DNA of 25,432 nt, from positions 1-25,432 of the forward strand of contig JASFEA010000028.1 of NCBI GenBank assembly GCA_050125095.1, read 5' to 3'. Position numbers and translations under genes: made by a program. Positions 4,814-20,469 of the stretch are shown here, piece by piece. The notes below the pieces were generated by a model. It did not search any database. It saw nothing but the letters and a program-made list of their open reading frames with translations, and was not told the origin of the DNA. The stretch is from a bacterium (GTDB lineage Bacteria; Arandabacterota; Arandabacteria; Arandabacterales; JALGWA01). Every line of letters begins with the position of its first letter. The stretch's first letter is position 1.

Positions 4814-5617
4814 ATGAAAAAACAAAAGACAAGAACATACCTACTGATCTCCATAGCGGTGCATATTCTGCTGCTCTTCATATGGGTCGGCACGGAGTCC
4901 TATCTGGAGAGGAGGGACCTGAGGGTCCAGGTCGAGGGGAAGGAGGAAGACCCCTGGGTCTTCGAAATCATCGAGACGCCCGATTTCCTGAAGGACGAGA
5001 AACCCGAAAGGCCGACCAATCTGGTTTCCGACAAGAGCACCCGCGCCGCCGACGAAAATCCCATGACCACGAGGAGCCTGGACATCCCCTACTCGCCCGG
5101 CGAATTCATGTTCAAGACCAATGAGCAGCGCGCAAGCGAGGCGTCCCGGGCCGCGGCGGCGGAGAGAGTTCCCGAGGCCGACCTGGGAGAGGTCGAGACC
5201 GTCGACCTCATGGGAGAAGGCGACCAGGACCGCCACTATCAGATACCGGCCCGCTCGGTGGCTTTCCGGAACCTCACGGCGAGTCTCGAACGAAGGGGCG
5301 GCGTGAGTTTCAATACATACGAGTGGGAGTTCGCGCCCTATATGCTGGCCATGAAACGGAGGGTCGAGCGGAACCTCCATCCGCCGTACGCCTTCACGCA
5401 TATGGGAATGGTGAGCGGCGTGAACATACTGCGCTTCACGGTCTTAAGGGACGGCACCGTCCGCGACCTCACCATACTCGGAAGCGATGCCCACTTCTGC
5501 CTGGACCGGACTAGCGTGAGGGCGATCGAACTCTCCATGCCGTTTATGCCGCTCCCCGACGACTTCCCGGAGGACGTTCTGGAAGTGACCGCGCAGTTCT
5601 CATACATCCTGCGGTAG
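4814..5617 (+). CDS. TonB/TolA-like membrane-anchored protein with TonB C-terminal domain
   Basis: N-terminal TM with SxxxH (ISIAVHILLL), charged linker, C-terminal YM...PYA...LRFTVLRDGTV...LDRTSVRAI...PFMPLP...F pattern. Confidence 0.75.
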   Translation: MKKQKTRTYLLISIAVHILLLFIWVGTESYLERRDLRVQVEGKEEDPWVFEIIETPDFLKDEKPERPTNLVSDKSTRAADENPMTTRSLDIPYSPGEFMFKTNEQRASEASRAAAAERVPEADLGEVETVDLMGEGDQDRHYQIPARSVAFRNLTASLERRGGVSFNTYEWEFAPYMLAMKRRVERNLHPPYAFTHMGMVSGVNILRFTVLRDGTVRDLTILGSDAHFCLDRTSVRAIELSMPFMPLPDDFPEDVLEVTAQFSYILR

Positions 5618-5685
5618 TACGGGAAGCGCTCGCTGCCCCGCAACGGCCGGTATGTCGCGTTCATGTGCGTGGCGTTTCTATGCGT

Positions 5686-6900
5686 TTATAGATAGCCGAA
5701 GCCTTTGAGGCGGGCCTTGACCTCCTCGCCCGCCTCGGCATAGGACTCGATATCACGGTTCCGGGTCTTGAGAATCTCCCTGTAGCCTGCGACCTTGTCG
5801 GCGCTCGGCTCACCCACATCGTTCGTATACAGGTTATCCTTCAAGATGAACTCGAAGTCCTCGTTGCGGTCGAAGAGATAGACCTCTCCGCCTTCATGCA
5901 CGCCGCAGAAGCCTACCTTGGCGTAAGAGGTCGAGATGAGGTTCCGGGTCTTGCCGGCGATGTTCCGGTCGCGGAGACCGAACTTGCCCAGCATCATCTG
6001 GTAGAAGTCCTCGTGGTCGATGAGCGTCGAGTCCACGACGCCGCCCCCGAGCCTGCGGTTATGCCTTATGGCGAAGACCTCGAACTGCTCGAAGCAGAAC
6101 CCGGTGGAGTGATGCCAGAGCGGGTTCTCGGACAGGCCCCAGTTGCCATCGAAGGCCTTCTTGCCGCATTGCGAGAAGCATTCGCCATGGTCGGAGTTGA
6201 CAAGAATCTCGAGGCCCGGGTAGCGCTCCAGCACCACGTCCACGAGCTGCCGCATGAAGTCGTCCACCAGGAGGCACTCGTTGTAGTACATCTTCTCGAC
6301 GATGTCGAGGTCCTCCATGGTGAGCGGGAAGTGCTGCTCGCGCCAGAGCTTCATCTTCTGGCCCATGATGCTCGACTCTTCCTCGTCTATGAAGTCGTAG
6401 CGGCGCTTGAGCCCGTAGTGCTCGGACGTGTAGGGGTAGTGATGGAAGTAGTCGTGCATGAGAAATGTGTGGAAGAAGACCATGTCGCTTTCCTTGAGGC
6501 GGTTGGCGATCATGTTGATCATGCCGTCGAGCTTGCGCGTATCGTAGGTGGAGGCGAAGTAGCGCTGGCTCCTGTACTGGAATATGTCGGATTCGGCGAG
6601 CACTCCGCAGCAGATGAGGCTGGGCCTCACCTCGGCCTCGACGAAGCGGTCGAAGATGAGGTCGGTCGGCTGGCCGGGATAGAGCCTGTAGCCCCAGAAG
6701 TTATGGGAGACGGTGGGCTCGCCCGTGAACATGGATGCATACGACGGAATAGTCCAGTTGCAGCTCGCGATATAATTGTCGTAATAGACCGAGTTGTCCT
6801 TAAGCGAGGTCATGAAGGGCGAGATGGGGATGCCCCGCACCACCTTGCCTATGTTATCTCTCCTGTAGGTGTCGAGTGAGACCACGAGCAACTTGTCCAT
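5686..6900 (-). CDS. Sulfatase-like hydrolase/transferase (alkaline phosphatase superfamily), predicted Thr nucleophile
   Basis: SLDTYRRD, WTIPSYASMFTG, HDY, NSDHGE, WHH, and C-terminal EEVKARLKGFGYL. Start placed at ATG 6900 (GGGAGA SD) rather than 6966. Confidence 0.8.
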   Translation of the reverse strand: MDKLLVVSLDTYRRDNIGKVVRGIPISPFMTSLKDNSVYYDNYIASCNWTIPSYASMFTGEPTVSHNFWGYRLYPGQPTDLIFDRFVEAEVRPSLICCGVLAESDIFQYRSQRYFASTYDTRKLDGMINMIANRLKESDMVFFHTFLMHDYFHHYPYTSEHYGLKRRYDFIDEEESSIMGQKMKLWREQHFPLTMEDLDIVEKMYYNECLLVDDFMRQLVDVVLERYPGLEILVNSDHGECFSQCGKKAFDGNWGLSENPLWHHSTGFCFEQFEVFAIRHNRRLGGGVVDSTLIDHEDFYQMMLGKFGLRDRNIAGKTRNLISTSYAKVGFCGVHEGGEVYLFDRNEDFEFILKDNLYTNDVGEPSADKVAGYREILKTRNRDIESYAEAGEEVKARLKGFGYL

Positions 6901-7036
6901 GTTCTCCCGCCTTTCCGCCTCGTTCCGCTGCGTTCGTATGTGCAAATATGGCCGTGCTTTATCCACTCAGCGCTTGTCACGATTGATATCGGCAAAATAA
7001 GGCGAGTCTTGACACGTAATGGCAGCGGCGCTTTCG

Positions 7037-7066
7037 TTGACACGGGGCCTCTAAGTGTAGTATAAT
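7037..7066 (+). promoter_or_regulatory. Consensus sigma70 promoter for the M14 peptidase gene
   Basis: TTGACA 7037-7042, 18-bp spacer, TATAAT 7061-7066. A second TTGACACG copy lies at 7009-7016. Confidence 0.8.
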
Positions 7067-7082
7067 AGGAATACCAGAAGGC

Positions 7083-7107
7083 GGGGCAGCAATGCTGCCC
7101 CTATTTT
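7083..7107 (+). promoter_or_regulatory. Terminator-like hairpin in the 5' leader of the M14 gene
   Basis: GGGGCAGC-AAT-GCTGCCCC perfect 8-bp stem followed by TATTTT. Confidence 0.55.
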
Positions 7108-7143: not shown

Positions 7144-9366
7144 ATGCGCCGTTTTACGTCTCTTCTCATCGTTCTTATTCTTGTTGTTCTCGCCTCAACC
7201 GCTTTCGCCGCCATCGGCGAGAAGTCTCTCGTCCGCGTCTACTTCGACAGCCCCGAGCACCGAAGCGCGGTGCTTAAGGAGTTCGACGACGTGGCCGGGC
7301 GTGCCAACAGCCGCTTCGCCGATATCGTGGTGCCCGGGGATAAGATGGCCGAGCTCATGGCTCTCGCCCCCAAATACGAGATCCTCATAGCCGATATTGA
7401 CCAGCTCATGCGGGACCGCGGCGTGCTGGATGTGGGAAGCGCATATCACACGTATGAAGAAGTGAACGCCGAGATGGACAGCATCGCGGCGCTCTATCCG
7501 AGCATATGCCAGGTCGACTCGGTCGGCGACACCTGGGAGGGGAGGACCATATACGGCATCAAGGTATCCGACAATGTCGCGACAACCGAGGACGAGCCGC
7601 GAGTGCTCTATATCGGTATGCATCACGCGCGAGAGATAATCACCACCGAGATACCGCTTTACATACTCTTCCACCTCGTAGATAACTACGGTTCCGACCC
7701 CAGGATCACAGACCTTGTGAACAACCGCGAGTTCTACATCATCCCGTGCCTCAATCCCGACGGCCGCGAGTACGTGGAGCACACGGGCGACTGGCGCAAG
7801 AACCGCAGGAACAACGGCGACGGCACCTACGGCGTCGACCTCAATCGGAACTACGGCTACATGTGGGGCTATGACGACAGCGGCTCCAGCCCCAATACGG
7901 GCGATGAGACTTACCGCGGCCCCTACGGCTTCTCCGAGCCCGAGACCCAGGCCATCAAGAACCTGTGCGAGGCGATTCAGTTCTCCACCGGCATCTCATA
8001 TCATTCCCATGGCGACCTCATCATATATCCGTACGGTTATGACTACGTCGTAAACGACGAGGCCGACGTCTTCCAGCGGCTCGCGGACAGCATGGCCACG
8101 TTCAACAACTACCACGCCGGCCCCATAACCGATCTCTACCCGGCCAACGGCGGCACCGACGACTGGATGTGGGGCGAACGCGGCACCAAGGACAAGGTCT
8201 ATTTCCTCACTGTAGAGGTGGGGGACGAGTTCTATCCGTCAGAGTCGGAGATACTGACGCTGTGCTCGGAGAACCTGGGCCCGGCCCTGGTGTTCGCCGA
8301 CTACGCGGATGAGCCCAGGCGCGTGCTCCCGCCCGTTGTGCCAAGTCTGGACCCCATGTCGGACAGCAATGACGGCAACTATACCGTGTCCTGGTCGACG
8401 CCGAGTCCGGACACCCTGAATCCCGCGGTCAAGTACGCGCTCACAGAGCGCATCGGCCCGAGCCGCATACTGGACGACTGCGAGGGCGACTGGGCGCATT
8501 GGATCAAAGATCTGTGGCAGCTCAGAAACGAAAGGTATCACAGCGCCGTTACGAGCTTCTATGGAGGCCGCTCGAACGACCGCAACTCGACCTTCATGTA
8601 CAAGTACGGCATGGACGTCGAGCCGACCGACACGCTCACGTTCTGGACCTGGTATGAAATCGAGGAGAACTGGGACTACGCGTACGTGGAAGTCTCCACG
8701 GACGGCGGCACCACCTTCCGGTCCATACCCGGCAACATCACCACGACCTATAATCCCAACGGCCAGAACGCCGGCCACGGAATCACAGGCGACTCCAATG
8801 GCTGGGTCGAGGCATTCTTCCCGCTCGGAGCGATGGCCGACACTACGACAATCGTACGTTTCCGCTATAAGACCGATGGCTACGTGCTCGAACAGGGCAT
8901 CTACGTGGATGACATCTTCCCGGTCCAGGAGTTCGACTCGTCCGCGGTCCTGAGCGACGTCATCACCAATGAGTACTACGACGTCACCGGCCAGGATGTG
9001 GGCACGTTCTACTATGAAGTGAGCGCCTGCGATGCCGAGGAACAGTGGAGCATGCTGAGCCAGAGGGAAGATATAGAAGTGCTGGCCTCGGGCGTACCCC
9101 GGAACGGCGAAGAGCCGGAGTTCGAGGCCTTCAGGAACCCGGTGCGCATAGGCCAGACGGTCAGGTTCGCGGCCGCCGCGGCCGCCAAGGACCGCGTCTT
9201 TGTTGTGGACGTCATGGGGCGCATGGTCGCCGACCTTGACGTTCCCGAGTCGGGCGCGGAGTGGGACCTCAGGGACGCTAGCGGCAACTACGTATCGCCG
9301 GGCATCTACTTCGTAAGATACGCTTCAGGCAGGGCGCCTGCCGCCAAGCTGGTGGTACTGAAGTAG
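7144..9366 (+). CDS. Secreted M14 zinc carboxypeptidase (carboxypeptidase T-like) with immune-inhibitor-A/MAM-like, FN3-like and C-terminal FlgD-Ig/T9SS-like domains
   Basis: Signal peptide ending AFA. HHARE, NPDG, WRKNR, DLNRN, SYHS and VEV motifs. WYEIEENWDYAYVEVSTDGG beta-sandwich. Tail WDLRDASGNYVSPGIYFVR. Confidence 0.93.
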   Translation: MRRFTSLLIVLILVVLASTAFAAIGEKSLVRVYFDSPEHRSAVLKEFDDVAGRANSRFADIVVPGDKMAELMALAPKYEILIADIDQLMRDRGVLDVGSAYHTYEEVNAEMDSIAALYPSICQVDSVGDTWEGRTIYGIKVSDNVATTEDEPRVLYIGMHHAREIITTEIPLYILFHLVDNYGSDPRITDLVNNREFYIIPCLNPDGREYVEHTGDWRKNRRNNGDGTYGVDLNRNYGYMWGYDDSGSSPNTGDETYRGPYGFSEPETQAIKNLCEAIQFSTGISYHSHGDLIIYPYGYDYVVNDEADVFQRLADSMATFNNYHAGPITDLYPANGGTDDWMWGERGTKDKVYFLTVEVGDEFYPSESEILTLCSENLGPALVFADYADEPRRVLPPVVPSLDPMSDSNDGNYTVSWSTPSPDTLNPAVKYALTERIGPSRILDDCEGDWAHWIKDLWQLRNERYHSAVTSFYGGRSNDRNSTFMYKYGMDVEPTDTLTFWTWYEIEENWDYAYVEVSTDGGTTFRSIPGNITTTYNPNGQNAGHGITGDSNGWVEAFFPLGAMADTTTIVRFRYKTDGYVLEQGIYVDDIFPVQEFDSSAVLSDVITNEYYDVTGQDVGTFYYEVSACDAEEQWSMLSQREDIEVLASGVPRNGEEPEFEAFRNPVRIGQTVRFAAAAAAKDRVFVVDVMGRMVADLDVPESGAEWDLRDASGNYVSPGIYFVRYASGRAPAAKLVVLK

Positions 9367-9475
9367 CAGCCCCGGAGTAGCGGGACTGACGCAACGGTGC
9401 CCGAGCAACTGTGCTGGAATAGCGGGACTGACGTGACTGTCCTGAAGCAACTGTGCTGGAATAGCAGCACCCGAA
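9350..9475. repeat. 14-bp degenerate tandem repeat with a higher-order 42-bp duplication
   Basis: tggtggtactgaag/tagcagccccggag/tagcgggactgacg/caacggtgcccgag/caactgtgctggaa/tagcgggactgacg/tgactgtcctgaag/caactgtgctggaa/tagcagcacccgaa. 9378-9419 and 9420-9461 share two identical 14-mers. Confidence 0.85.
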
Positions 9476-9508
9476 TAAAAGGACCTGCGAGTAGCATCGC
9501 AGGTCCTT
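9476..9508 (-). terminator. Intrinsic terminator for the response regulator, possibly bidirectional
   Basis: Perfect 12-bp stem AAGGACCTGCGA/TCGCAGGTCCTT with a 6-nt loop; reads into TTTTATT on the minus strand; lies between convergent genes. Confidence 0.8.
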
Positions 9509-9575
9509 GAGTTAGTATCTGATTGATAGCGACTCTATTTAGCCGCATACGGCAGCCCGGCCGGCTGAGGCGATA

Positions 9576-9965
9576 CTAGTCGCCCAGCACCTCGTTTACC
9601 GCGGCCTGCAGTTTCGCGGGCTCTATGGGCTTCTCAACGTACACGGCGGGCTTTTCGCCCATGTACTTGCCCATTTCATCCGCCGAGAATCCGAGCCCCA
9701 CCTTCTCCTTAATGCCGGTCAGCATGATCACCGGCGTGGCCTTGAGTTCGTCGTCCTGCTTGATGATGCCGAATACCTGGAAGCCGTCCTTGCCCGGCAT
9801 CTGAACGTCCAGAATGACCAGGTCGGGCTTCTCCCGACGCATCTTCTCGATACCACTGTCGCCATCGTGGGCGAAGACGACCTGGTGCCCCATGGTCTCA
9901 AGGATCTCCTTGGCGAAATCGACGGCATCTGGCTCATCGTCGATCAGCAGCACTTTCTTGGGCAT
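9576..9965 (-). CDS. Single-domain response regulator (CheY-like receiver)
   Basis: LIDDE, phosphoacceptor LDVQMP, MLTG, YVEKP; SD AAGGAGG upstream. Confidence 0.95.
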   Translation of the reverse strand: MPKKVLLIDDEPDAVDFAKEILETMGHQVVFAHDGDSGIEKMRREKPDLVILDVQMPGKDGFQVFGIIKQDDELKATPVIMLTGIKEKVGLGFSADEMGKYMGEKPAVYVEKPIEPAKLQAAVNEVLGD

Positions 9966-10022
9966 ACTTCATACCTCCTTGGGTCCAACTGTATCATGGT
10001 TCAGTGGCTGGTTTAGACCCTG

Positions 10023-10051
10023 ATTATGGGCTCTCGGGCGCCGGGTGTCAA
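10023..10051 (-). promoter_or_regulatory. Sigma70 promoter for the response regulator
   Basis: Minus strand TTGACA (10051-10046), 17-bp spacer, CATAAT (10028-10023). Confidence 0.7.
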
Positions 10052-10181
10052 CAATATATTTGGCCGTACAGAGACGTTGCAGAGGCCCCGGAAAAGGTGT
10101 AGCATCGGATATGCTTGCGTTTGGGCACGAGATCGGCCGCCCGGCCCATACCGCCGGGCCGTCTTGAGGGAGGGCAGCGAC

Positions 10182-11825
10182 TTGGTAAGCATAGTGGTAA
10201 CCAGCGAGGGACAGCAAATCCACAAGGTCAAGGCGAGTCAGGACACGTATATCCTCGGCCGCCACGACTCCTGCGATATTATGCTCGAGGACAAGACCAT
10301 ATCGAGGAAGCATGCCCGGCTCGAGATCAAGGACGATGAGGCGTTTGTCGAGGACCTGGGCTCGAGGAACGGGACATACGTGAACGGCCAGAAGGTCTCC
10401 CGAAAGCAGGTGGCGTCAGGCGACAGCATAGTCATAGGCAAGTTCACCATTACCTTAGAGGGGCTGGCGACCAGCACTGAGAAGCAGGGTGGGCCGGGCT
10501 CGTCGGACGGTGGGCGGGATGACTCGGGGCGGGCCGAATCCCGGCGAGCAGACTCGGGCGGTGCCACTATCCTGACGTCTCTGGACGCCAGCAAGATCGG
10601 CCGCGGCCAGGACATCAAGGACGGCGAAGTCGACCCCGGGGCGGCCACCGAACGCCTCTCGACGCTATACGAGCTCGGCCAGAAGCTCTGCGGCCGGCTC
10701 GGGACCTCGGATATCGCCGGCACCTTCCTCGACATGCTGCTCCGCGTGTTCGATAAGGCCGACCGCGCCGTAGTGCTCGTGGAGGACAGGATGAGCCGGG
10801 AGCTCATGCCCATAGCCGCACTCGACCGCAAGGGCGAGCCCGGTGAGATAAAGCTCTCGTCGACGGTTGTGAACTCGGTCTTAAAGGACAAGTGCGCCGT
10901 GCTTTGCACGGATACGACTGCGGATGAAAGGTTTGCCGAGTCACGCAGCCTCCAGGACCTGAGGATACAGTCCATCATGTGCGTGCCCCTGCTGGCGGCC
11001 GACACCGTGATAGGCATGGTGGAGGTGAGCTCGGCCAAGGGAGGCATAACCTTCAGCGAGGAGGACCTCCGGCTCCTGACGGGGCTGTCATCGGAAGTGA
11101 GCATCGCGCTTGAGAACGCCCGCCTCTACGACCAGGTGGAGCAGTCCAAGCGCCTCGCGGCCATAGGCCAGACCGTATCGGGCGTGGCCCATTGCGTAAA
11201 GAATGTCTTGAACGGCATAGACGGCGGGCTCTTCATAGCAAGGAATGCGCTCGAATCCAATAACTCGGAGAAGCTCGAGAAGGGCTGGGAGATGCTCGAC
11301 CGGAACGCAGGCTTCTTAAAGACCCTCGTGCTGGACATGCTCGACTACTCAAAGCACCGTGAGCCAGAGTACGAGGAAGTGGAACTCGCCGCCTACATGG
11401 AGGACCTGAGGTCCTTCGTGGCCGACAGGGCGTCGGCCATGAAGGTCGAACTCGCGTTTGAGACCGATGAGAGCCTTAAAGTCGTGAAACTCGATGTGAG
11501 GCAGTCCAAGCGCGCCTTCTTAAACATCATCGGAAACGCCATAGAGGCCACCCCCGAGGGCGGAAGGGTGGAGGTATCGGCCAGGAGGAAGTCGGGCTCC
11601 GAGTTCGACCTAATAATCTCCGATACTGGAACGGGCATACCCGAAGACAAGATAGACACCATATTCGAGCCCTTCTTCTCGACCAAGGGCTCCAAGGGGA
11701 CCGGCCTCGGGCTTCCCGTGACCAAGAAGATAATCGAAGAGCACCGGGGCACCATAGAGATAGAGTCAAAAGAGGGCGAGGGCACCACCTTCACCATCAC
11801 CCTCCCCACTGGGGTCAGGTCTTGA
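10182..11825 (+). CDS. Cytoplasmic FHA-GAF-histidine kinase
   Basis: FHA motifs GR, ISRKHA, DLGSRNGTYVN. GAF motifs SIMCVPL, FSEEDL, IALENA. H-box AHCVKN, N-box NIIGNAIEA, G1 DTGTG, F box FEPFFSTK, G2 GTGLGL. In-frame TTG 10182 with GAGGGAGG SD preferred over ATG 10026. Confidence 0.92.
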   Translation: MVSIVVTSEGQQIHKVKASQDTYILGRHDSCDIMLEDKTISRKHARLEIKDDEAFVEDLGSRNGTYVNGQKVSRKQVASGDSIVIGKFTITLEGLATSTEKQGGPGSSDGGRDDSGRAESRRADSGGATILTSLDASKIGRGQDIKDGEVDPGAATERLSTLYELGQKLCGRLGTSDIAGTFLDMLLRVFDKADRAVVLVEDRMSRELMPIAALDRKGEPGEIKLSSTVVNSVLKDKCAVLCTDTTADERFAESRSLQDLRIQSIMCVPLLAADTVIGMVEVSSAKGGITFSEEDLRLLTGLSSEVSIALENARLYDQVEQSKRLAAIGQTVSGVAHCVKNVLNGIDGGLFIARNALESNNSEKLEKGWEMLDRNAGFLKTLVLDMLDYSKHREPEYEEVELAAYMEDLRSFVADRASAMKVELAFETDESLKVVKLDVRQSKRAFLNIIGNAIEATPEGGRVEVSARRKSGSEFDLIISDTGTGIPEDKIDTIFEPFFSTKGSKGTGLGLPVTKKIIEEHRGTIEIESKEGEGTTFTITLPTGVRS

Positions 11826-11864: not shown

Positions 11865-11973
11865 CCCCCCGGGCTCCCTCGTCACGGCCCCAAACGGCGC
11901 ATTTTTTCTGCTTTTCAACCCCGCGGATTTCTGTTAGGTTTTCTCTTGGACACCCGCATCAGCAGCACCATAT

Positions 11974-12001
11974 TTGACCAGGTTTATACCCGAAATACAC
12001 T
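11974..12001 (+). promoter_or_regulatory. Possible sigma70 promoter for the HMGS cluster
   Basis: TTGACC, 16-bp spacer, TACACT; followed by the SD AAGGGAGGGAG before ATG 12030. Confidence 0.35.
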
Positions 12002-12029: not shown

Positions 12030-13076
12030 ATGGCGGGAATCGTAGGCTACGGGGCGTACGCTCCGCGTTACAGAATCAAAGTCGAGGAAATCGCCAAAGT
12101 CTGGGGCGCGGACGCCCCCAGCTACAAGCGCGGCCTCATGCTCAGGGAGAAATCCGTGCCCGCCGCCGACCAGGACGTGATAACCATGTCGGTGGAGGCG
12201 GCCCGGAACGCTGTCAAGAGGGCCAAAATCGACCCCAAGAAGATCGGCGCCATATACATAGGCTCCGAGTCGCACCCATACGCGGTCAAGCCCTCGGGCA
12301 CCGTGGTCGCGGAGGCCATCGGGGCCACGCCCGAGATCCACTGCGCCGACTTCGAGTTCGCCTGCAAGGCCGGCTCGGAGGGCATGTTCGTGGCCTTAAG
12401 CCTCATAGACGCGGGCACCATGGACTACGCCCTCGCCATAGGTGCCGACACCTCGCAGGGAGCCCCCGGCGACGCCCTCGAGTACTCGGCCTCGGCGGGA
12501 GCGGCGGCCTACATCATGGGAAAGACCGACACCGTGGCCGACTGCGAGCACACTTATGCATTCATGACCGACACGCCCGACTTCTGGCGCCGCGAGTACA
12601 TGCACTACCCGCGCCACGCCGGGCGCTTTACGGGCGCGCCCGCCTATTTCAAGCACGTAACGGGCTGCGCCAGGGGCATTATGGAGAAGTCCGGCACCAA
12701 GCCCGCCGACTTCAATTACGCCATCTTCCACCAGCCCAACGGCAAGTTCCCCTCGACGGTGGCCAAGAAGCTCGGCTTTAGACCTGAGCAGATTGAGCCC
12801 GGGCTCCTCTGCCCCAGGCTCGGCAACACTTATTCGGGCTCCTCGCCCATGGGCCTTTCGGCAACTCTGGACGTCGCCAAGCCGGGCGACCTCATTCTCA
12901 TGTGTTCATACGGTTCGGGCGCGGGAAGCGACGGCTTCATATTCCGCGTCACCGATCGCATAAAGGAGGTCCAGGACCTGGCCTTCAAGGTCACCGACTA
13001 CCTGGACAAGCACAAGTTCTACCTGCAGTACGGCGAGTACGCCAAGCTCCGCAGGAAGATACGCAAAGGCGAATAA
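12030..13076 (+). CDS. Hydroxymethylglutaryl-CoA synthase, archaeal type
   Basis: 348 aa. [24 protein letters not shown] (catalytic Glu), EFACKAG (catalytic Cys), [13 protein letters not shown] (His), [16 protein letters not shown] and YGEYAK match the archaeal HMGS signature. Confidence 0.93.
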
Positions 13077-13104
13077 CTGAATATACAGAGTGAGGGATAG
13101 GGTT

Positions 13105-14262
13105 ATGAGAGACGTTGCAGTAATCGGAGTCGGAATGATCAAGTGGGGCGAGCTCTGGGACAAGTCGCTCCGCGATTTATACGTCGAGGCGGCCCTGAAG
13201 GCCATAGACGACGCCGGGGTGGACAAGATTGACGCCCTCTACGCCGGCTGCATGTCCTCCGGCCTCTTCGTGGGCCAGGAGCACATCGGCGCGCTCGTCG
13301 CCGACTATCTCGGGATGGCGCCCATACCGGGGACGCGCGTCGAGTCGGCATGCGCCTCGGGCGGGCTTGCCATGAGGTGCGGCTTGATGGACGTGGCCTC
13401 GGGCATGAATGACATCGTGCTCGTGGGCGGGGTCGAGAAGATGACCGACGTCGACGGCGGCGGCGCCACCTTCGCGCTAGCAACGGCGGCCGACCAGGAG
13501 TATGAGGTCTATAACGGCGTCACGTTCCCCGGCCTCTACGCCATGATGGCGCGCGCCCATATGGAGCGCCACGGCACGACGCGCAAGCACCTCTCCATGG
13601 TCTCGGTCAAGAACCATGCGAACGGCGCCAAGAACGAGAACGCCCAGTACCGCATGAACCTCACCACCGACCAGGTCGAAGGCTCGGTCATGGTCGCGGA
13701 CCCCCTGACCATATTAGACTGCTCCCCTATTACCGACGGCGCGGCGGCTGCGATTATCTGCCCGCTCGATATGGCCGAGAAGATCGCCAAGAAGGCCGTG
13801 ATCAAGGTCACGGGCTCGGGGCACGCGACAGATATGATGGCGCTTCACCAGAGGAAGGACATCACATGGCTCTCGGCCGTCGAGAAGGCCGGCCAGGATG
13901 CTTACAAGATGGCGGGCGCAAAGCCCGGCGACATCGATCTCGTCGAGGTTCACGACTGCTTCACCATAGCCGAGATCATGACTATCGAGGCCCTCGGATT
14001 TGCAGAGAAGGGCAAGGGCGGCAAGCTCACCGAGGCCGGCGAGACGGCCATCGGCGGCAGGATCCCGGTGAACACTTCGGGCGGCCTCAAGTCCAAGGGC
14101 CACCCGGTGGGGGCCACCGGCGTCGCCCAGATAGTAGAGGTCGTGGAGCAGCTCCGCGGCGAGAGCGGCGAGAGACAGGTCAAGGGTGCGAAGCGCGGCA
14201 TGACCCAGAACATGGGGGGGACCGGCGCGAGCTCCGTTTGCCATATTCTGGAGGTAGCATAA
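13105..14262 (+). CDS. Acetyl-CoA C-acetyltransferase (thiolase), archaeal/SCP-x-like type
   Basis: [10 protein letters not shown] start, ESACASG (catalytic Cys), [33 protein letters not shown] 13105 preferred over GTG 13090. Confidence 0.93.
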
Positions 14263-14661
14263 ATGTCAACTTCAGCCAGATACTGGAGAGAGATACCACA
14301 GCGTTACCGCTACGAGGCCGCCAAGTGCAAGGGCTGCGGCGAGGTTCACTTCCCGCCGCGCCTCATCTGCCCGGGCTGCAAGGGTCGGACCTTCGAGACC
14401 GTCGTGCTCTCAGATAAGGGCAAGGTCGAGACCTTCACCGTGATCCGCGTGGCCCCCTGCGAGTACACCGACGAGGCGCCTTACCCCATAGGCATCATCG
14501 AGCTGGATGACGGCGTCAAGGTGCAGTGCCAGATTGCGGACTGCCCCATCGAAGACCTCAAGACGGGCATGCCCGTCCGAATCGAGTTCAGGAAGGTGAA
14601 GGAAGAGGGGGAGGCAGGCATACTCTGTTACGGCTTCAAGGCCGTGCCGGCAGGAGACTAG
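14263..14661 (+). CDS. DUF35 Zn-ribbon + OB-fold protein (thiolase/HMGS scaffold)
   Basis: RYWRE, CKGC...FPPRLICPGC rubredoxin-like ribbon, GKVETFT, PY.IGIIEL, YGFK. Starts immediately after the thiolase stop (TAAATG). Confidence 0.93.
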   Translation: MSTSARYWREIPQRYRYEAAKCKGCGEVHFPPRLICPGCKGRTFETVVLSDKGKVETFTVIRVAPCEYTDEAPYPIGIIELDDGVKVQCQIADCPIEDLKTGMPVRIEFRKVKEEGEAGILCYGFKAVPAGD

Positions 14662-15461: not shown

Positions 15462-15584
15462 CTATGAGCCATGGCTGGATGCCTTAAAGAGCAGAGCAAC
15501 GGAAGGGCGCGAGTCTGCATCTAATTTGTGTATGGTTAAGTGCGGCTTCACTTCAGGCCTTTTGATCACCTAAGGAGGATTTAT

Positions 15585-16052
15585 ATGAGCCCGAGCGAAA
15601 TCAATGTTGGAGACATGGCACCCGGTTTCAACCTCAAGGACCAGGACGGCAACGACCACAGCCTGGGCGACTACAAGGGCAAGAAGATCATTCTGAGCTT
15701 CCATCCCCTGGCATGGACCGGTCTCTGCACCACTCAGATGCAGCAGCTCGACAGTAAGTTCGACAAAATCGCCAAGCAGGGCGGTGTGGGCTTCGGCCTC
15801 AGCATCGACAGCACCTTCTGCAAGCACGCTTGGTGCAAGGACATGGGCGTTGAGAAGACACGCCTCCTCTCGGACTTTTGGCCGCATGGCGGATACGCCG
15901 CCGAGCTGGGCCTCTTCAGGGAGGTAGAGGGCACCGCAAAGCGCGCCGTGGTGATCCTGGGCACGGACGGCAAGGTGGCCTGGAAGAAGGTATACCCTGT
16001 CTCTCAACTCCCCGACATCGAAGAGATAATGAGCGAGTTCGAGAAGGCCTGA
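15585..16052 (+). CDS. Peroxiredoxin, AhpE-like (AhpC/TSA family)
   Basis: PLAWTGLC (PxxxTxxC), SID, LLSDFWPHG, KRAV; strong SD TAAGGAGG before ATG 15585. Confidence 0.9.
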   Translation: MSPSEINVGDMAPGFNLKDQDGNDHSLGDYKGKKIILSFHPLAWTGLCTTQMQQLDSKFDKIAKQGGVGFGLSIDSTFCKHAWCKDMGVEKTRLLSDFWPHGGYAAELGLFREVEGTAKRAVVILGTDGKVAWKKVYPVSQLPDIEEIMSEFEKA

Positions 16053-17953: not shown

Positions 17954-19615
17954 ATGGAGGACTTCTCAATCCTCATAGGCGGCAAGGCGGGAGACGGCAT
18001 TCGCCAGATCGGCGGTCTTGTTGCCGGCCTCCTCGGGAAACTTGGCTATCACGTCTTCTTCTGGGATGACTACCCATCCCTCATAAGAGGCGGCCACAAC
18101 TTCAGCCTCATAAGGGCCTGCCGCTGCATGATCCAGGCCAACACCAGCGATGTCGACCTTATCGTCGCCCTGAATGAAGACACCATCAAGAACCACAGTT
18201 GGCGCCTCAAGCCCAAGGGCAAGGTTGTATACGATGCCGACGCCTTCGAGGCCGAAGGCACAGGCATGAAGTTTACGAGCATCGTAAAAGACGCGGGCGG
18301 CAAGCCCATCATGCGCAACACGGCCGCCTTCGCCGTGATCGGCAGGATGCTGGGTCTCGAGTGGAGCGTCCTGGAGGAACTGGTAAATACCTCCTTTAAG
18401 AAGGAGACCGAGACCAACCTCGCCATTGCCAAGGCCGCATACGAGCAGGCCGGCGAGGCGACGCTTAATATCGAGACCGGCCCGGCCGAGCCGCTTCCCC
18501 TGATGACAGGCAATGAAGCCATCGCGCTCGGCGCCGTGGCCGCAGGCCTCGACCTCTATATCGCCTACCCCATGACGCCTTCTACGAGCATACTTCACTT
18601 CCTCGCTGCCCATGAGGAGGAGCTCGGGATTGTCACCTATCATCCCGAGAACGAGATTGCAGCGGCTGTGACCGCCATCGGCGGCGCCTACGCCGGCGCA
18701 AGGACCATGGTCGGCTCCGCAGGGGGCGGCTTCGCGCTAATGGCGGAGGCCGTGAGCCTTGCCGCCCAGAGTGAAGCGCCCGTGGTTTTCGTTGTAAGCC
18801 AGCGGCCGGGCCCGAGCACAGGCGTTCCCACATACACCACTCAGGGTGACCTCAACTTTGTCCTCTCGGCAGGTCACGGGGAGTTCCTGCGCTTTGTAGT
18901 AGCGCCCGGCGATGTCAACGAGGCCTATGAGCTCACCGGCCTTGCCATGAACATGGCATGGAAATACCAGATACCGGCGTTTGTGCTCACCGACAAGTGC
19001 CTGAGCGAAAGCACATACTGCTTCGAGACGGGAGATCCGGGATTCAAGGAAGTGAAGAATGAAAATGGCTCGCTATGGGACGGCAAGGGCGAGTACAAGC
19101 GGTATCTGGATACAGATAATGGCGTCTCGCCCCTCGCATTTCCGGGTAGAGCCGGAGCCATCGTCAAGGGCACGAGCTACGAGCACGACGAGGCCGGCAT
19201 CACCACCGAGCTCCCCGAAGCCATCGTGGCCATGCAGGATAAGCGCATGAAGAAGAGCTCTGGGCTCATAGAGGATGTCAACAACCCCGAAGCGGTTAAG
19301 ACCTACGGCAAGCCAGACTCGGACGTTGCCCTGCTCACCTGGGGCTCCACCAAGGGAGCGTGTGTGGAGGTTGCAGAGAACCTGGGGCTCAAGGTAGTCC
19401 AGCCCGTTATCCTGGAGCCCTTCCCGACAGAGGCGCTTGAGGCGGCTCTAAAGGGATCTAAGAAAGTGATTGGCGTCGAGGTCAACGTCACCGGCTGCCT
19501 GGCCGACCTGGCATCATGCCACGGAATCGAGGTTCATGAGAAGATCCTCAAATACGACGGGAGGCACTTCACCGTGGACGAGCTTCAGAAGAGGGTGGAG
19601 GGGGTGATGAAATGA
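17954..19615 (+). CDS. 2-oxoacid:ferredoxin oxidoreductase alpha subunit (fused gamma-alpha, KorA-like)
   Basis: GGKAGDG and YPSLIRGGHN (gamma); GNEAIA, YPMTP, ENEIAA, QRPGPSTG.PT...QGD, EHDE.G, WGST (alpha). Substrate not assignable. Confidence 0.95.
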   Translation: MEDFSILIGGKAGDGIRQIGGLVAGLLGKLGYHVFFWDDYPSLIRGGHNFSLIRACRCMIQANTSDVDLIVALNEDTIKNHSWRLKPKGKVVYDADAFEAEGTGMKFTSIVKDAGGKPIMRNTAAFAVIGRMLGLEWSVLEELVNTSFKKETETNLAIAKAAYEQAGEATLNIETGPAEPLPLMTGNEAIALGAVAAGLDLYIAYPMTPSTSILHFLAAHEEELGIVTYHPENEIAAAVTAIGGAYAGARTMVGSAGGGFALMAEAVSLAAQSEAPVVFVVSQRPGPSTGVPTYTTQGDLNFVLSAGHGEFLRFVVAPGDVNEAYELTGLAMNMAWKYQIPAFVLTDKCLSESTYCFETGDPGFKEVKNENGSLWDGKGEYKRYLDTDNGVSPLAFPGRAGAIVKGTSYEHDEAGITTELPEAIVAMQDKRMKKSSGLIEDVNNPEAVKTYGKPDSDVALLTWGSTKGACVEVAENLGLKVVQPVILEPFPTEALEAALKGSKKVIGVEVNVTGCLADLASCHGIEVHEKILKYDGRHFTVDELQKRVEGVMK

Positions 19616-20469
19616 GCGAGATCAACCTTAATACCTACGCCGAGAACACCTGGTGCAAGGGCTGCGGCAACTTCGGCATTCTCACTGCCGCACAGGGGGC
19701 CATAAAGAAACTCGTCGCCGAAGGCTACCCTCTCGAGAAAATCGCCATCGCCTCCGGCATCGGCTGCTCATCCAAGATAGTGGATTACATAAACGTCAAC
19801 TCCTTCTACTCCATTCACGGCAGAGTTCCGCCCACCGTTACGGGCATCAAGCTCGCCAACAAAGACCTCTCAGTCATCGGCTTTACAGGCGACGGTGACG
19901 GCTACGGCGAGGGTCTCGCGCATATCATCATGTCGGCCAAGCGCAACATCGACGTCACCATGGTGATTCACAATAACCGGGTCTACGGCCTCACCACGGG
20001 CCAGTTCACCCCCACGAGCCCGACAGGCTTTCCCGGGAAATCCACGCCACGCGGGAGCGTCGAGCACCCCTTGAATCCCTTGGAGCTCATGTTGGCGGCG
20101 GGCGCTACGTTTGTGGCGAGGGGATACTCGGTCAAAGCCGACCTTCTCGCCGACCTCATCGTCCAGGGCGTGAAACACAAGGGCTTCGCCTTCATCGATG
20201 TCCTTCAGCCCTGCTTCACTTTCTTCAACACCTTCAAATTCTATAACAACAAGGTGTATGAGCTCGAAGGACATGACCCCTCAAACCTCGAGGCGGCCCG
20301 TACGCGCGCCCGGGAGTGGAACTATGACATGGAAGCCGAGAAGATCCCCATCGGGCTCTTCTACAAGGTGGAGCGGCCATCATACGACGAGCAGGTCCTT
20401 AGGGGCCTAGTTCTCGCACAGGAGAGGGATAGGTCCGACATCCCGGCATTCATAAGGTCGCATATGTGA
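19612..20469 (+). CDS. 2-oxoacid:ferredoxin oxidoreductase beta subunit (TPP-binding, KorB-like)
   Basis: WCKGCGN, SGIGCS, HGR, GDGD, NNRVYGLTTGQ, QPC; ATGA overlap with the alpha gene. Confidence 0.95.
   Translation: MSEINLNTYAENTWCKGCGNFGILTAAQGAIKKLVAEGYPLEKIAIASGIGCSSKIVDYINVNSFYSIHGRVPPTVTGIKLANKDLSVIGFTGDGDGYGEGLAHIIMSAKRNIDVTMVIHNNRVYGLTTGQFTPTSPTGFPGKSTPRGSVEHPLNPLELMLAAGATFVARGYSVKADLLADLIVQGVKHKGFAFIDVLQPCFTFFNTFKFYNNKVYELEGHDPSNLEAARTRAREWNYDMEAEKIPIGLFYKVERPSYDEQVLRGLVLAQERDRSDIPAFIRSHM

Follow-up and report, generated by a model that had tools for sequence, protein, structure and literature searches.

The closest described relatives of the genes treated here encode an archaeal complex of 3-hydroxy-3-methylglutaryl coenzyme A (HMG-CoA) synthase, thiolase and a DUF35 protein, solved for Methanothermococcus (Protein Data Bank [PDB] entry 6ESQ). 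Vogeli et al. reportedly described in 2018 that this complex occurs in some bacterial genomes and that the archaeal enzyme synthesizes HMG-CoA. Here we analyze such a trio of genes in a window of 25,432 nucleotides, which is the entire contig JASFEA010000028.1 (C28) of a 3.35-Mb assembly (GCA_050125095.1; 91% complete, 3.45% contamination) of an uncultured wetland bacterium of the phylum Arandabacterota. The archaeal complex is the best solved relative of all three subunits, and the catalytic residues are identical. However, the bacterial locus differs from it in several respects: it is accompanied by no HMG-CoA reductase or other mevalonate enzyme, its operon includes a crotonase gene, its conserved partner genes encode a carboxylase and a ferredoxin oxidoreductase, and in the cell it may work in the opposite direction. 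The operon very probably forms the HMG-CoA end of a leucine/isovalerate pathway of the Liu type and not the start of the mevalonate pathway.

Myxococcus xanthus has an alternative isovaleryl-CoA pathway made up of MvaS, LiuC, AibA/B and AibC, in which the synthase is of the bacterial MvaS type. The present locus resembles it in having an HMG-CoA synthase and a putative methylglutaconyl-CoA hydratase outside isoprenoid synthesis. In contrast, the synthase in the window is not of the MvaS type, and the genome encodes a biotin carboxylase set instead of AibA/B-type proteins. The intermediates proposed below are also those of the liuABCDE-encoded Liu pathway of Pseudomonas aeruginosa (PMC9636800), and relatives of the window share with that pathway the beta and alpha parts of methylcrotonyl-CoA carboxylase (MCC), crotonase and acyl-CoA dehydrogenase. 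The present case differs in that the trio takes the place of the LiuE lyase, that a carboxyltransferase resembling GcdA of glutaconyl-CoA decarboxylase replaces MCC beta in the genome studied, and that entry is probably by a ferredoxin oxidoreductase and not by a dehydrogenase complex. In the same three-protein architecture, and likewise in bacteria, are PhlABC of Pseudomonas and MucABC of Streptococcus, derivatives in which PhlA and MucA lack the E-C-H-N tetrad of the synthase and PhlC and MucB lack the HDxF motif of the thiolase (PMC12960953).

Results

Genes in the window were read from six-frame open reading frames (ORFs) and profile searches; their coordinates are collected in Table 1. 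The HMG-CoA synthase scored 553.1 bits against the archaeal equivalog TIGR00748 (cut-off, 353.35) and 548.7 bits against PRK04262 (cut-off, 244), with only 104.8 bits against the bacterial MvaS model TIGR01835 (cut-off, 360.35). Its best PDB match was 6esq_I (459.9 bits), and the tetrad E80, C112, H234 and N266 was present. The thiolase passed NF004720 (540.9 bits; cut-off, 420) and had 6esq_A as its best PDB match (390.5 bits). Unlike the archaeal subunit, it fell short of the Methanothermococcus thermolithotrophicus equivalog NF053570 (547.4 bits; cut-off, 600). Its C83, its HDxF motif (H283-D284-C-F286) and H333 in the GHP motif were all in place; the reading frame is open from a GTG at 13090, and the ATG at 13105 was taken as the start because the alignment to 6esq_A begins there. 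The DUF35 protein matched PF12172 (38.9 bits) and PF01796 (74.3 bits), both above the cut-off, was closest to 6esq_E in the PDB (116.5 bits) and contained both cysteine pairs, C22xxC25 and C36xxC39. All three proteins are orthologous to the subunits of the archaeal complex, and the catalytic residues are intact. The initial annotation had described three adjacent genes with intact motifs, the last two abutting, and this proved correct: all lie on the plus strand, 28 bases separate the synthase and thiolase genes, and the thiolase stop (TAA) is followed directly by the ATG of the DUF35 gene with a spacing of 0 bases. Given the gene adjacency and the similarity to 6ESQ, the proteins of the window may also assemble into a complex with a fused CoA site.

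The arrangement was compared with the best 80 of at least 594 related stretches confirmed, out of at least 600, among species-representative genomes, all 80 of which come from bacterial metagenome-assembled genomes. The thiolase gene followed the synthase gene in 78 of the 80, and a DUF35 gene was found in 72; seven of the eight misses were loci that end within about 500 bases, while one (L034) had no DUF35 match despite 6.8 kb of downstream sequence. The synthase tetrad was kept in all 80 loci. The thiolase cysteine was retained in 76/78, and the HDxF motif and GHP histidine were retained in 74/78, the site not being covered in the remaining loci. In DUF35, the four cysteines of the zinc ribbon were conserved in 62 to 63 of 72 loci and replaced in about 10/72, whereas the catalytic residues of the synthase and thiolase never vary among the related loci. 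The genome itself encodes a second thiolase (contig C136, 3917-5443) that is 45% identical to the one in the window and reaches 412.5 bits against NF004720, just under its cut-off of 420. It is followed by a gene for a 113-amino-acid DUF35 OB-fold protein without a zinc-ribbon match, and no HMG-CoA synthase gene adjoins.

A fourth member of the operon, overlooked in the initial annotation, begins 5 bases after the DUF35 stop and encodes an enoyl-CoA hydratase of the crotonase family. Its best NCBIfam models were PRK05674 (gamma-carboxygeranoyl-CoA hydratase; 255.7 bits; cut-off, 426) and PRK07468 (237.4 bits), both below the cut-off. Partner genes were counted in those 54 loci that extend 3 kb or more beyond the trio on its 3' side. 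Crotonase orthologues (45 to 76% identity) occurred downstream in 36 of these, an MCC-beta gene in 34 and a biotin carboxylase in 33; crotonase and MCC beta were found together in 31. Many relatives, among them L020, L021, L026, L027, L035, L044 and L058, share the operon order trio, carboxyltransferase (about 535 amino acids), crotonase, biotin carboxylase and biotin carboxyl carrier protein (BCCP). Some loci also hold genes for acyl-CoA dehydrogenase (L059, L061, L043 and L073), for methylmalonyl-CoA-mutase-like proteins or for AtuA. The carboxyltransferase of L020 belongs to the MCC-beta lineage, as judged from PDB scores of 732.8 bits for 3u9r_B and 724.8 bits for human MCCC2 (8j4z_J), compared with 431 for geranyl-CoA carboxylase and about 215 to 280 for the solved beta chains of propionyl-CoA carboxylase, 9tps_A excepted.

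No MCC-beta orthologue was found in the genome studied or in its close relatives, where the best matches were 35 to 38% identical (35 to 37% in the genome studied). An assembly gap was rejected as the cause: four genomes of the subclade are without MCC beta, and 14 of the 16 phylum genomes (all at least 80% complete, ten of them at least 90%; this set is used throughout) contain another type of carboxyltransferase. In the genome studied, this other type lies on contig C42 (locus L089), in the order biotin carboxylase (7282-8634), carboxyltransferase (8639-10363; 574 amino acids) and BCCP-like gene (10462-11106). The carboxyltransferase had GcdA (1PIX, 3GF3) as its best PDB match at 258.2 bits, with MCC beta chains at 240 to 250, and glutaconyl-CoA, the substrate of GcdA, is one methyl group short of 3-methylglutaconyl-CoA. 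It differs from GcdA in that the match is barely better than that to MCC beta and that the neighbors of its gene encode an ATP-grasp biotin carboxylase and a BCCP-like protein, with no sodium-pump subunit. No characterized member was found in the clade of this carboxyltransferase.

The set on C42 is orthologous (68, 60 and 39% identity for biotin carboxylase, carboxyltransferase and BCCP) to one that L059 carries within its trio operon, with the DUF35 gene on one side and the acyl-CoA dehydrogenase and crotonase genes on the other. In three further loci (L005, L037 and L077), a GcdA-like set is found within a few kilobases of the trio. With L059, they make up the complete group of four loci that have crotonase, lack MCC beta and reach more than 4.8 kb downstream. 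Among 50 trio-bearing genomes, 41 had the MCC type and 9 the GcdA-like type, with none having both or neither; among the 16 phylum genomes, at least 3 of which are shared with the 50 under other labels, the counts were 2 and 14, again with none having both or neither. That the two carboxyltransferase types are strictly alternative at the genome level is strong evidence for a methylcrotonyl-CoA-type carboxylase as the working partner of the trio and for the GcdA-like enzyme as the functional replacement of that carboxylase in this lineage. Both types have an ATP-grasp biotin carboxylase subunit. Additionally, two methylmalonyl-CoA-mutase-like large subunits were seen in the genome (C111:87-2281 and C36:11-3264; TIGR00641, about 765 bits each); one of the genes comes after a BCCP-like gene and the other before a gene for an acyl-CoA dehydrogenase, and loci L020, L031 and L050 have similar mutase genes next to the trio operon.

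HMG-CoA lyase (NF004283) was missing from the genome, in which the best score was 40.7 bits (cut-off, 246) for an oxaloacetate decarboxylase subunit. None of the 16 phylum genomes and 5 of the 50 trio genomes had a match above the cut-off. The CoA-transferase family PF01144, which would include enzymes for acetoacetate activation and those of the AibA/AibB type, had no match in the genome, and an AibA/B-type decarboxylase was rejected for this reason. The fold shared by LeuA, CimA, homocitrate synthase and HMG-CoA lyase (PF00682) was absent from five phylum genomes that are 91 to 99% complete (G000, G053, G060, G063 and G064), the sole match being the oxaloacetate decarboxylase subunit OadA in the genus of the window. 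LeuA-type enzymes were found in neither of the two genomes searched in that genus, and LeuB was above the cut-off in 0/16 phylum genomes. IlvC was present in 12 of the 16 phylum genomes and in none of the three from the genus. M28 and M14 peptidases are encoded in the window. Because of these peptidases, the lack of IlvC and the lack of LeuA-type enzymes, the data point to a branched-chain amino acid auxotroph living on peptides. A pair of LeuCD-like and isopropylmalate-dehydrogenase-like genes is located on contig C9.

Downstream of the crotonase gene, the window codes for a peroxiredoxin, for an amidohydrolase and, at 17954-20469, for both subunits of a 2-oxoacid:ferredoxin oxidoreductase. 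Fourteen of the 16 phylum genomes contain an orthologue of its alpha subunit. In 10 of these 14 it lies 3 to 6 kb downstream of the HMG-CoA synthase gene on the same contig and strand, and in the other 4 the two genes are on separate short contigs. In several phylum genomes the GcdA-like carboxylase comes directly after the oxidoreductase, in convergent orientation. From this neighborhood, the oxidoreductase fits as a candidate enzyme for converting 2-oxoisocaproate to isovaleryl-CoA.

Proposed pathway and alternative readings

Starting from the observed orthology, catalytic residues, gene order and genome-wide patterns of presence and absence, we infer the substrates, the assembly of the complex and, above all, the direction of flux as follows. 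Leucine from peptides would be transaminated to 2-oxoisocaproate, which the neighboring oxidoreductase would convert to isovaleryl-CoA. An acyl-CoA dehydrogenase would then produce 3-methylcrotonyl-CoA, and an ATP- and biotin-dependent carboxylase (the GcdA-like set on C42 here, the classical MCC in most relatives) would convert this to 3-methylglutaconyl-CoA. Hydration by the crotonase would yield HMG-CoA, and the synthase, thiolase and DUF35 protein working in reverse would turn HMG-CoA and two CoA into three acetyl-CoA, with all three thioesters kept. We lean slightly toward this full reading, that is, a lyase-free module for leucine or isovalerate in which the trio would run backwards.

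Several lines of evidence favor breakdown. Because there is no lyase and no family I CoA-transferase, the reversed trio is the only visible exit from HMG-CoA. Carboxylation is favored because both carboxylase types keep the ATP-grasp subunit, and breakdown is also favored because the operon is found with dehydrogenase and not with reductase genes in relatives and because the organism looks like a peptide feeder. The thiolase condensation is unfavorable by about +25 kJ/mol, which the exergonic synthase step roughly offsets; from these free energies, the summed reaction of three acetyl-CoA should be near equilibrium, with its flux set by the surrounding reactions.

A number of observations weigh against this interpretation. 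With respect to the assignments, the top PDB match of the L020 carboxyltransferase is 9tps_A (742.5 bits), which is named as a propionyl-CoA carboxylase beta chain, and 6 of the 41 MCC-type matches are only 46 to 53% identical and may represent another family member, such as geranyl-CoA carboxylase. The carboxylase genes are not adjacent to the trio in the window and lie on another contig, C42. The crotonase falls below every NCBIfam cut-off, so its substrate is assigned from context, and no methylglutaconyl-CoA hydratase chain was among its 50 listed PDB matches, the top ones having generic crotonase names. No isovaleryl-CoA dehydrogenase was assigned; three acyl-CoA dehydrogenases in the genome (C111, C36 and C72) are 43 to 48% identical to that of L059. 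Full-length HMG-CoA reductase was found in 10 of the 50 trio genomes, in which the trio may feed a mevalonate pathway. With respect to direction, HMG-CoA synthase is usually regarded as practically irreversible. Moreover, three well-assembled genomes (G053, G060 and G064) have IlvC without a LeuA-type protein, which fits a biosynthetic direction, and HMG-CoA synthesis is reportedly the only activity demonstrated for the archaeal complex (PMC12960953).

The last points belong to an alternative that we consider possible, if rather unlikely, in which the module runs forward. The complex would join three acetyl-CoA to HMG-CoA, as in archaea, the crotonase would dehydrate this to 3-methylglutaconyl-CoA, the biotin enzyme would decarboxylate this to 3-methylcrotonyl-CoA, and reduction would give isovaleryl-CoA for iso-branched fatty acids or, via the oxidoreductase, leucine. 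A forward route from HMG-CoA synthase to methylglutaconyl-CoA is known in Streptomyces and myxobacteria (PMC9636800). The absence of LeuA/CimA-type enzymes from all five good phylum genomes (OadA apart) and of LeuB above the cut-off from all 16 argues in the same direction, as does the occurrence of IlvC in 12 of the 16, since several members thus make valine precursors without the isopropylmalate route to leucine; the oxidoreductase, moreover, is syntenic with the trio. However, an ATP-grasp biotin carboxylase subunit, present in both carboxylase types, would be needless for a plain decarboxylase, the genome has no AibA/AibB-type proteins, and the operon in relatives is accompanied by acyl-CoA dehydrogenases and not by enoyl reductases. 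The genus of the window also lacks IlvC, which looks like general auxotrophy and not like a special leucine route, and the LeuCD-like and isopropylmalate-dehydrogenase-like pair on C9 may likewise count against it. In one version of this alternative, the module in the phylum would serve as a leucine route that needs no isopropylmalate pathway, with the syntenic oxidoreductase reductively carboxylating isovaleryl-CoA to 2-oxoisocaproate and thence to leucine. Such a route would explain IlvC without any LeuA-type enzyme in genomes that are 96 to 99% complete; we regard it as improbable.

The initial annotation had placed the trio at the start of the mevalonate pathway, and this did not hold for the present organism. 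HMG-CoA reductase (PF00368), mevalonate kinase (TIGR00549) and diphosphomevalonate decarboxylase (TIGR01240) were all absent from the 91% complete genome. PF00368 was found in 0/16 phylum genomes, whereas a control search detected it in five named genomes. Enzymes of the methylerythritol phosphate (MEP) route were present (IspH, 281.5 bits; Dxr, 447.5 bits). On these grounds the mevalonate reading was rejected for this organism, and the fourth gene of the operon and its conserved partners, being of leucine-pathway types, speak against it as well. In its favor are the orthology with an archaeal mevalonate-pathway complex, the occurrence of reductase elsewhere and genes for archaeal-type ether lipids, which the trio would perhaps feed; overall, we consider a role in isoprenoid synthesis here very improbable. 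Among the 50 trio genomes, 36 had no reductase match and 4 had a weak or partial one, besides the 10 with a full-length enzyme. Thus, trio and mevalonate pathway can occur together, but they do not in most bearers of the trio or anywhere in the phylum. On a Zixibacteria chromosome (G005, locus L084, 1369-3711), reductase and GHMP kinase are fused in one ORF of 780 amino acids that follows a gene for an FMN-dependent dehydrogenase, and this looks like a genuine mevalonate cluster. The reductase match lies in similar ORFs of 773 to 822 amino acids (920 in one genome) in five other trio genomes.

A search for geranylgeranylglyceryl phosphate (GGGP) synthase, which the initial annotation had named, was positive. 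Contig C6 carries two overlapping genes at 5089-7105: one of the geranylgeranyl reductase family (TIGR02032, 169.2 bits against a cut-off of 158.8), which runs into the start of the other, a gene for GGGP synthase (TIGR01769, 188.2 bits against 161.55; NF003198, 269.6 bits against 247). This is an archaeal-type ether-lipid pair in a bacterium that has the MEP route only, and the GGGP synthase would be supplied by that route. No UbiA-type gene adjoins; RecA, RecX and AlaRS genes flank the pair on one side, and rhamnose and phosphonate genes flank it on the other.

It is barely credible that the trio is an acyltransferase like PhlABC or MucABC, acting in secondary metabolism to C-acetylate a small molecule: these systems do derive from the same architecture (PMC12960953), but the proteins of the window keep both the tetrad and the HDxF motif that those lack, their scores to PhlA, PhlC and PhlB (211.9, 124.7 and 63 bits) are under about half of those to 6ESQ, and no biosynthetic cluster genes lie nearby in the window. 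A PhlABC- or FabH-like affiliation, which would have contradicted the initial annotation, was likewise rejected from these scores and motifs.

Origin and distribution

The initial annotation had regarded the bacterial context of the trio as remarkable. It is an ordinary setting, because close relatives are held by at least 594 species-representative genomes and by the whole phylum set, in which archaeal-type HMG-CoA synthase was above the cut-off in 16/16 genomes. A protein search with the HMG-CoA synthase of the window returned at least 8,000 matches, the best 120 of which are listed at 73 to 96% identity. The sources include Eisenbacteria, Zixibacteria, Gemmatimonadota, Acidobacteriota, Planctomycetota and CSSED10-310, and many of the matches listed already carry the annotation HMG-CoA synthase. 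An archaeal or chimeric contig was rejected: the G+C content of the window is even (0.54 to 0.66), the synthase gene occurs throughout the phylum set, and the neighboring genes are bacterial. As the initial annotation had said of these neighbors, they include a TonB_C match (27.7 bits), together with ClpB, a rhomboid protein and an M28 peptidase with an FlgD_ig domain. The Por_Secre_tail match of this peptidase was weak (22.3 bits, under the cut-off of 27).

A quick, unrooted maximum-likelihood tree of the synthase was built from 51 rows: the window, 32 of the 80 loci chosen for phylum spread, 10 labeled archaeal rows (nine partial sequences of at most 277 amino acids and the trimmed synthase half of a Lokiarchaeota fusion protein), three further bacterial rows and five distant unlabeled ones. 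All 33 window-type rows formed one clade, with a support of 99 in the Shimodaira-Hasegawa-like approximate likelihood ratio test (SH-aLRT), within which the phyla were intermixed, and the window stood beside Eisenbacteria (SH-aLRT, 99). The archaeal rows fell outside the bacterial clade in an unresolved part of the tree, and a Chloroflexi pair was separate. This topology is consistent with a single acquisition by bacteria, or a single retention in them, and with later exchange between phyla; unrooted and with its archaeal part unresolved, the tree is compatible with transfer and with ancient retention alike.

Other features of the window

Table 1. Coordinates of the trio and of the surrounding features in the window
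Feature	Position	Strand	Basis
Two tandem motif copies of about 30 bases, each CTGGGGTCAGGTCT...GCACAA	11810-11869	+	Read from sequence
Two overlapping sigma-70-like promoter matches	11947-12001	+	In the 204-base spacer 5' of the HMG-CoA synthase gene
FHA-GAF-HATPase_c sensor kinase	10026-11825		Directly upstream of the operon
Archaeal-type HMG-CoA synthase, 348 amino acids	12030-13076	+	TIGR00748, 6esq_I
SCP-x/archaeal-type acetoacetyl-CoA thiolase, 385 amino acids	13105-14262	+	NF004720, 6esq_A
DUF35 scaffold protein (zinc ribbon and OB fold), 132 amino acids	14263-14661	+	PF12172, PF01796, 6esq_E
Enoyl-CoA hydratase (crotonase), methylglutaconyl-CoA-hydratase-like, 264 amino acids	14667-15461 (GTG start)	+	PF00378, 200.5 bits
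Peroxiredoxin (AhpC/TSA)	15540-16052	+	PF00578, 95.5 bits
2-Oxoacid:ferredoxin oxidoreductase, alpha (gamma) subunit	17954-19615	+	TIGR03710, 541 bits (cut-off, 482.75)
2-Oxoacid:ferredoxin oxidoreductase, beta subunit	19612-20469	+	TIGR02177, 290.7 bits (cut-off, 261.9)

Upstream of the operon, the sensor kinase gene has a 53% identical counterpart in the same place at the Eisenbacteria locus L004, and the kinase may regulate the operon. The tandem motif lies between this histidine kinase gene and the promoter-like sites and is a possible regulator site. The two sigma-70-like sites compare with 1.2 ± 1.1 expected from shuffling, a count not above chance, and their position is suggestive. Downstream, the peroxiredoxin gene sits between the crotonase gene and that of the oxygen-sensitive ferredoxin oxidoreductase, and tblastn found it there in the close relatives L005 (11502-11951) and L053 (3467-3649) as well.

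Significance

Genes of this kind are common and already annotated, and what is undescribed is their pathway context. A full-text literature search, with most subscription journals and supplements outside its range, found no paper linking the archaeal-type trio to methylcrotonyl-CoA carboxylase or to leucine breakdown in bacteria. As far as we have seen, the either/or pattern of the carboxylases, the synteny with the ferredoxin oxidoreductase and the phylum-wide counts appear to be new. The replacement of methylcrotonyl-CoA carboxylase by a GcdA-like carboxylase would be a second, putative enzyme assignment.

If the complex splits HMG-CoA into three acetyl-CoA, it would replace both HMG-CoA lyase and the activation of acetoacetate. 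By stoichiometric reasoning, this would save one thioester, or about one ATP, per leucine or isovalerate, which would be a real advantage for energy-limited anaerobes in wetlands and sediments, and an enzyme pair held in textbooks to be one-way and biosynthetic would turn out to be used both ways in nature. The pattern spans many uncultured phyla, including Eisenbacteria, Zixibacteria, Aminicenantes, Ignavibacteria, Planctomycetota and others. It would therefore also affect how amino acid turnover is read from metagenomes, in which the genes of the trio are currently taken to mean that the mevalonate pathway is present.

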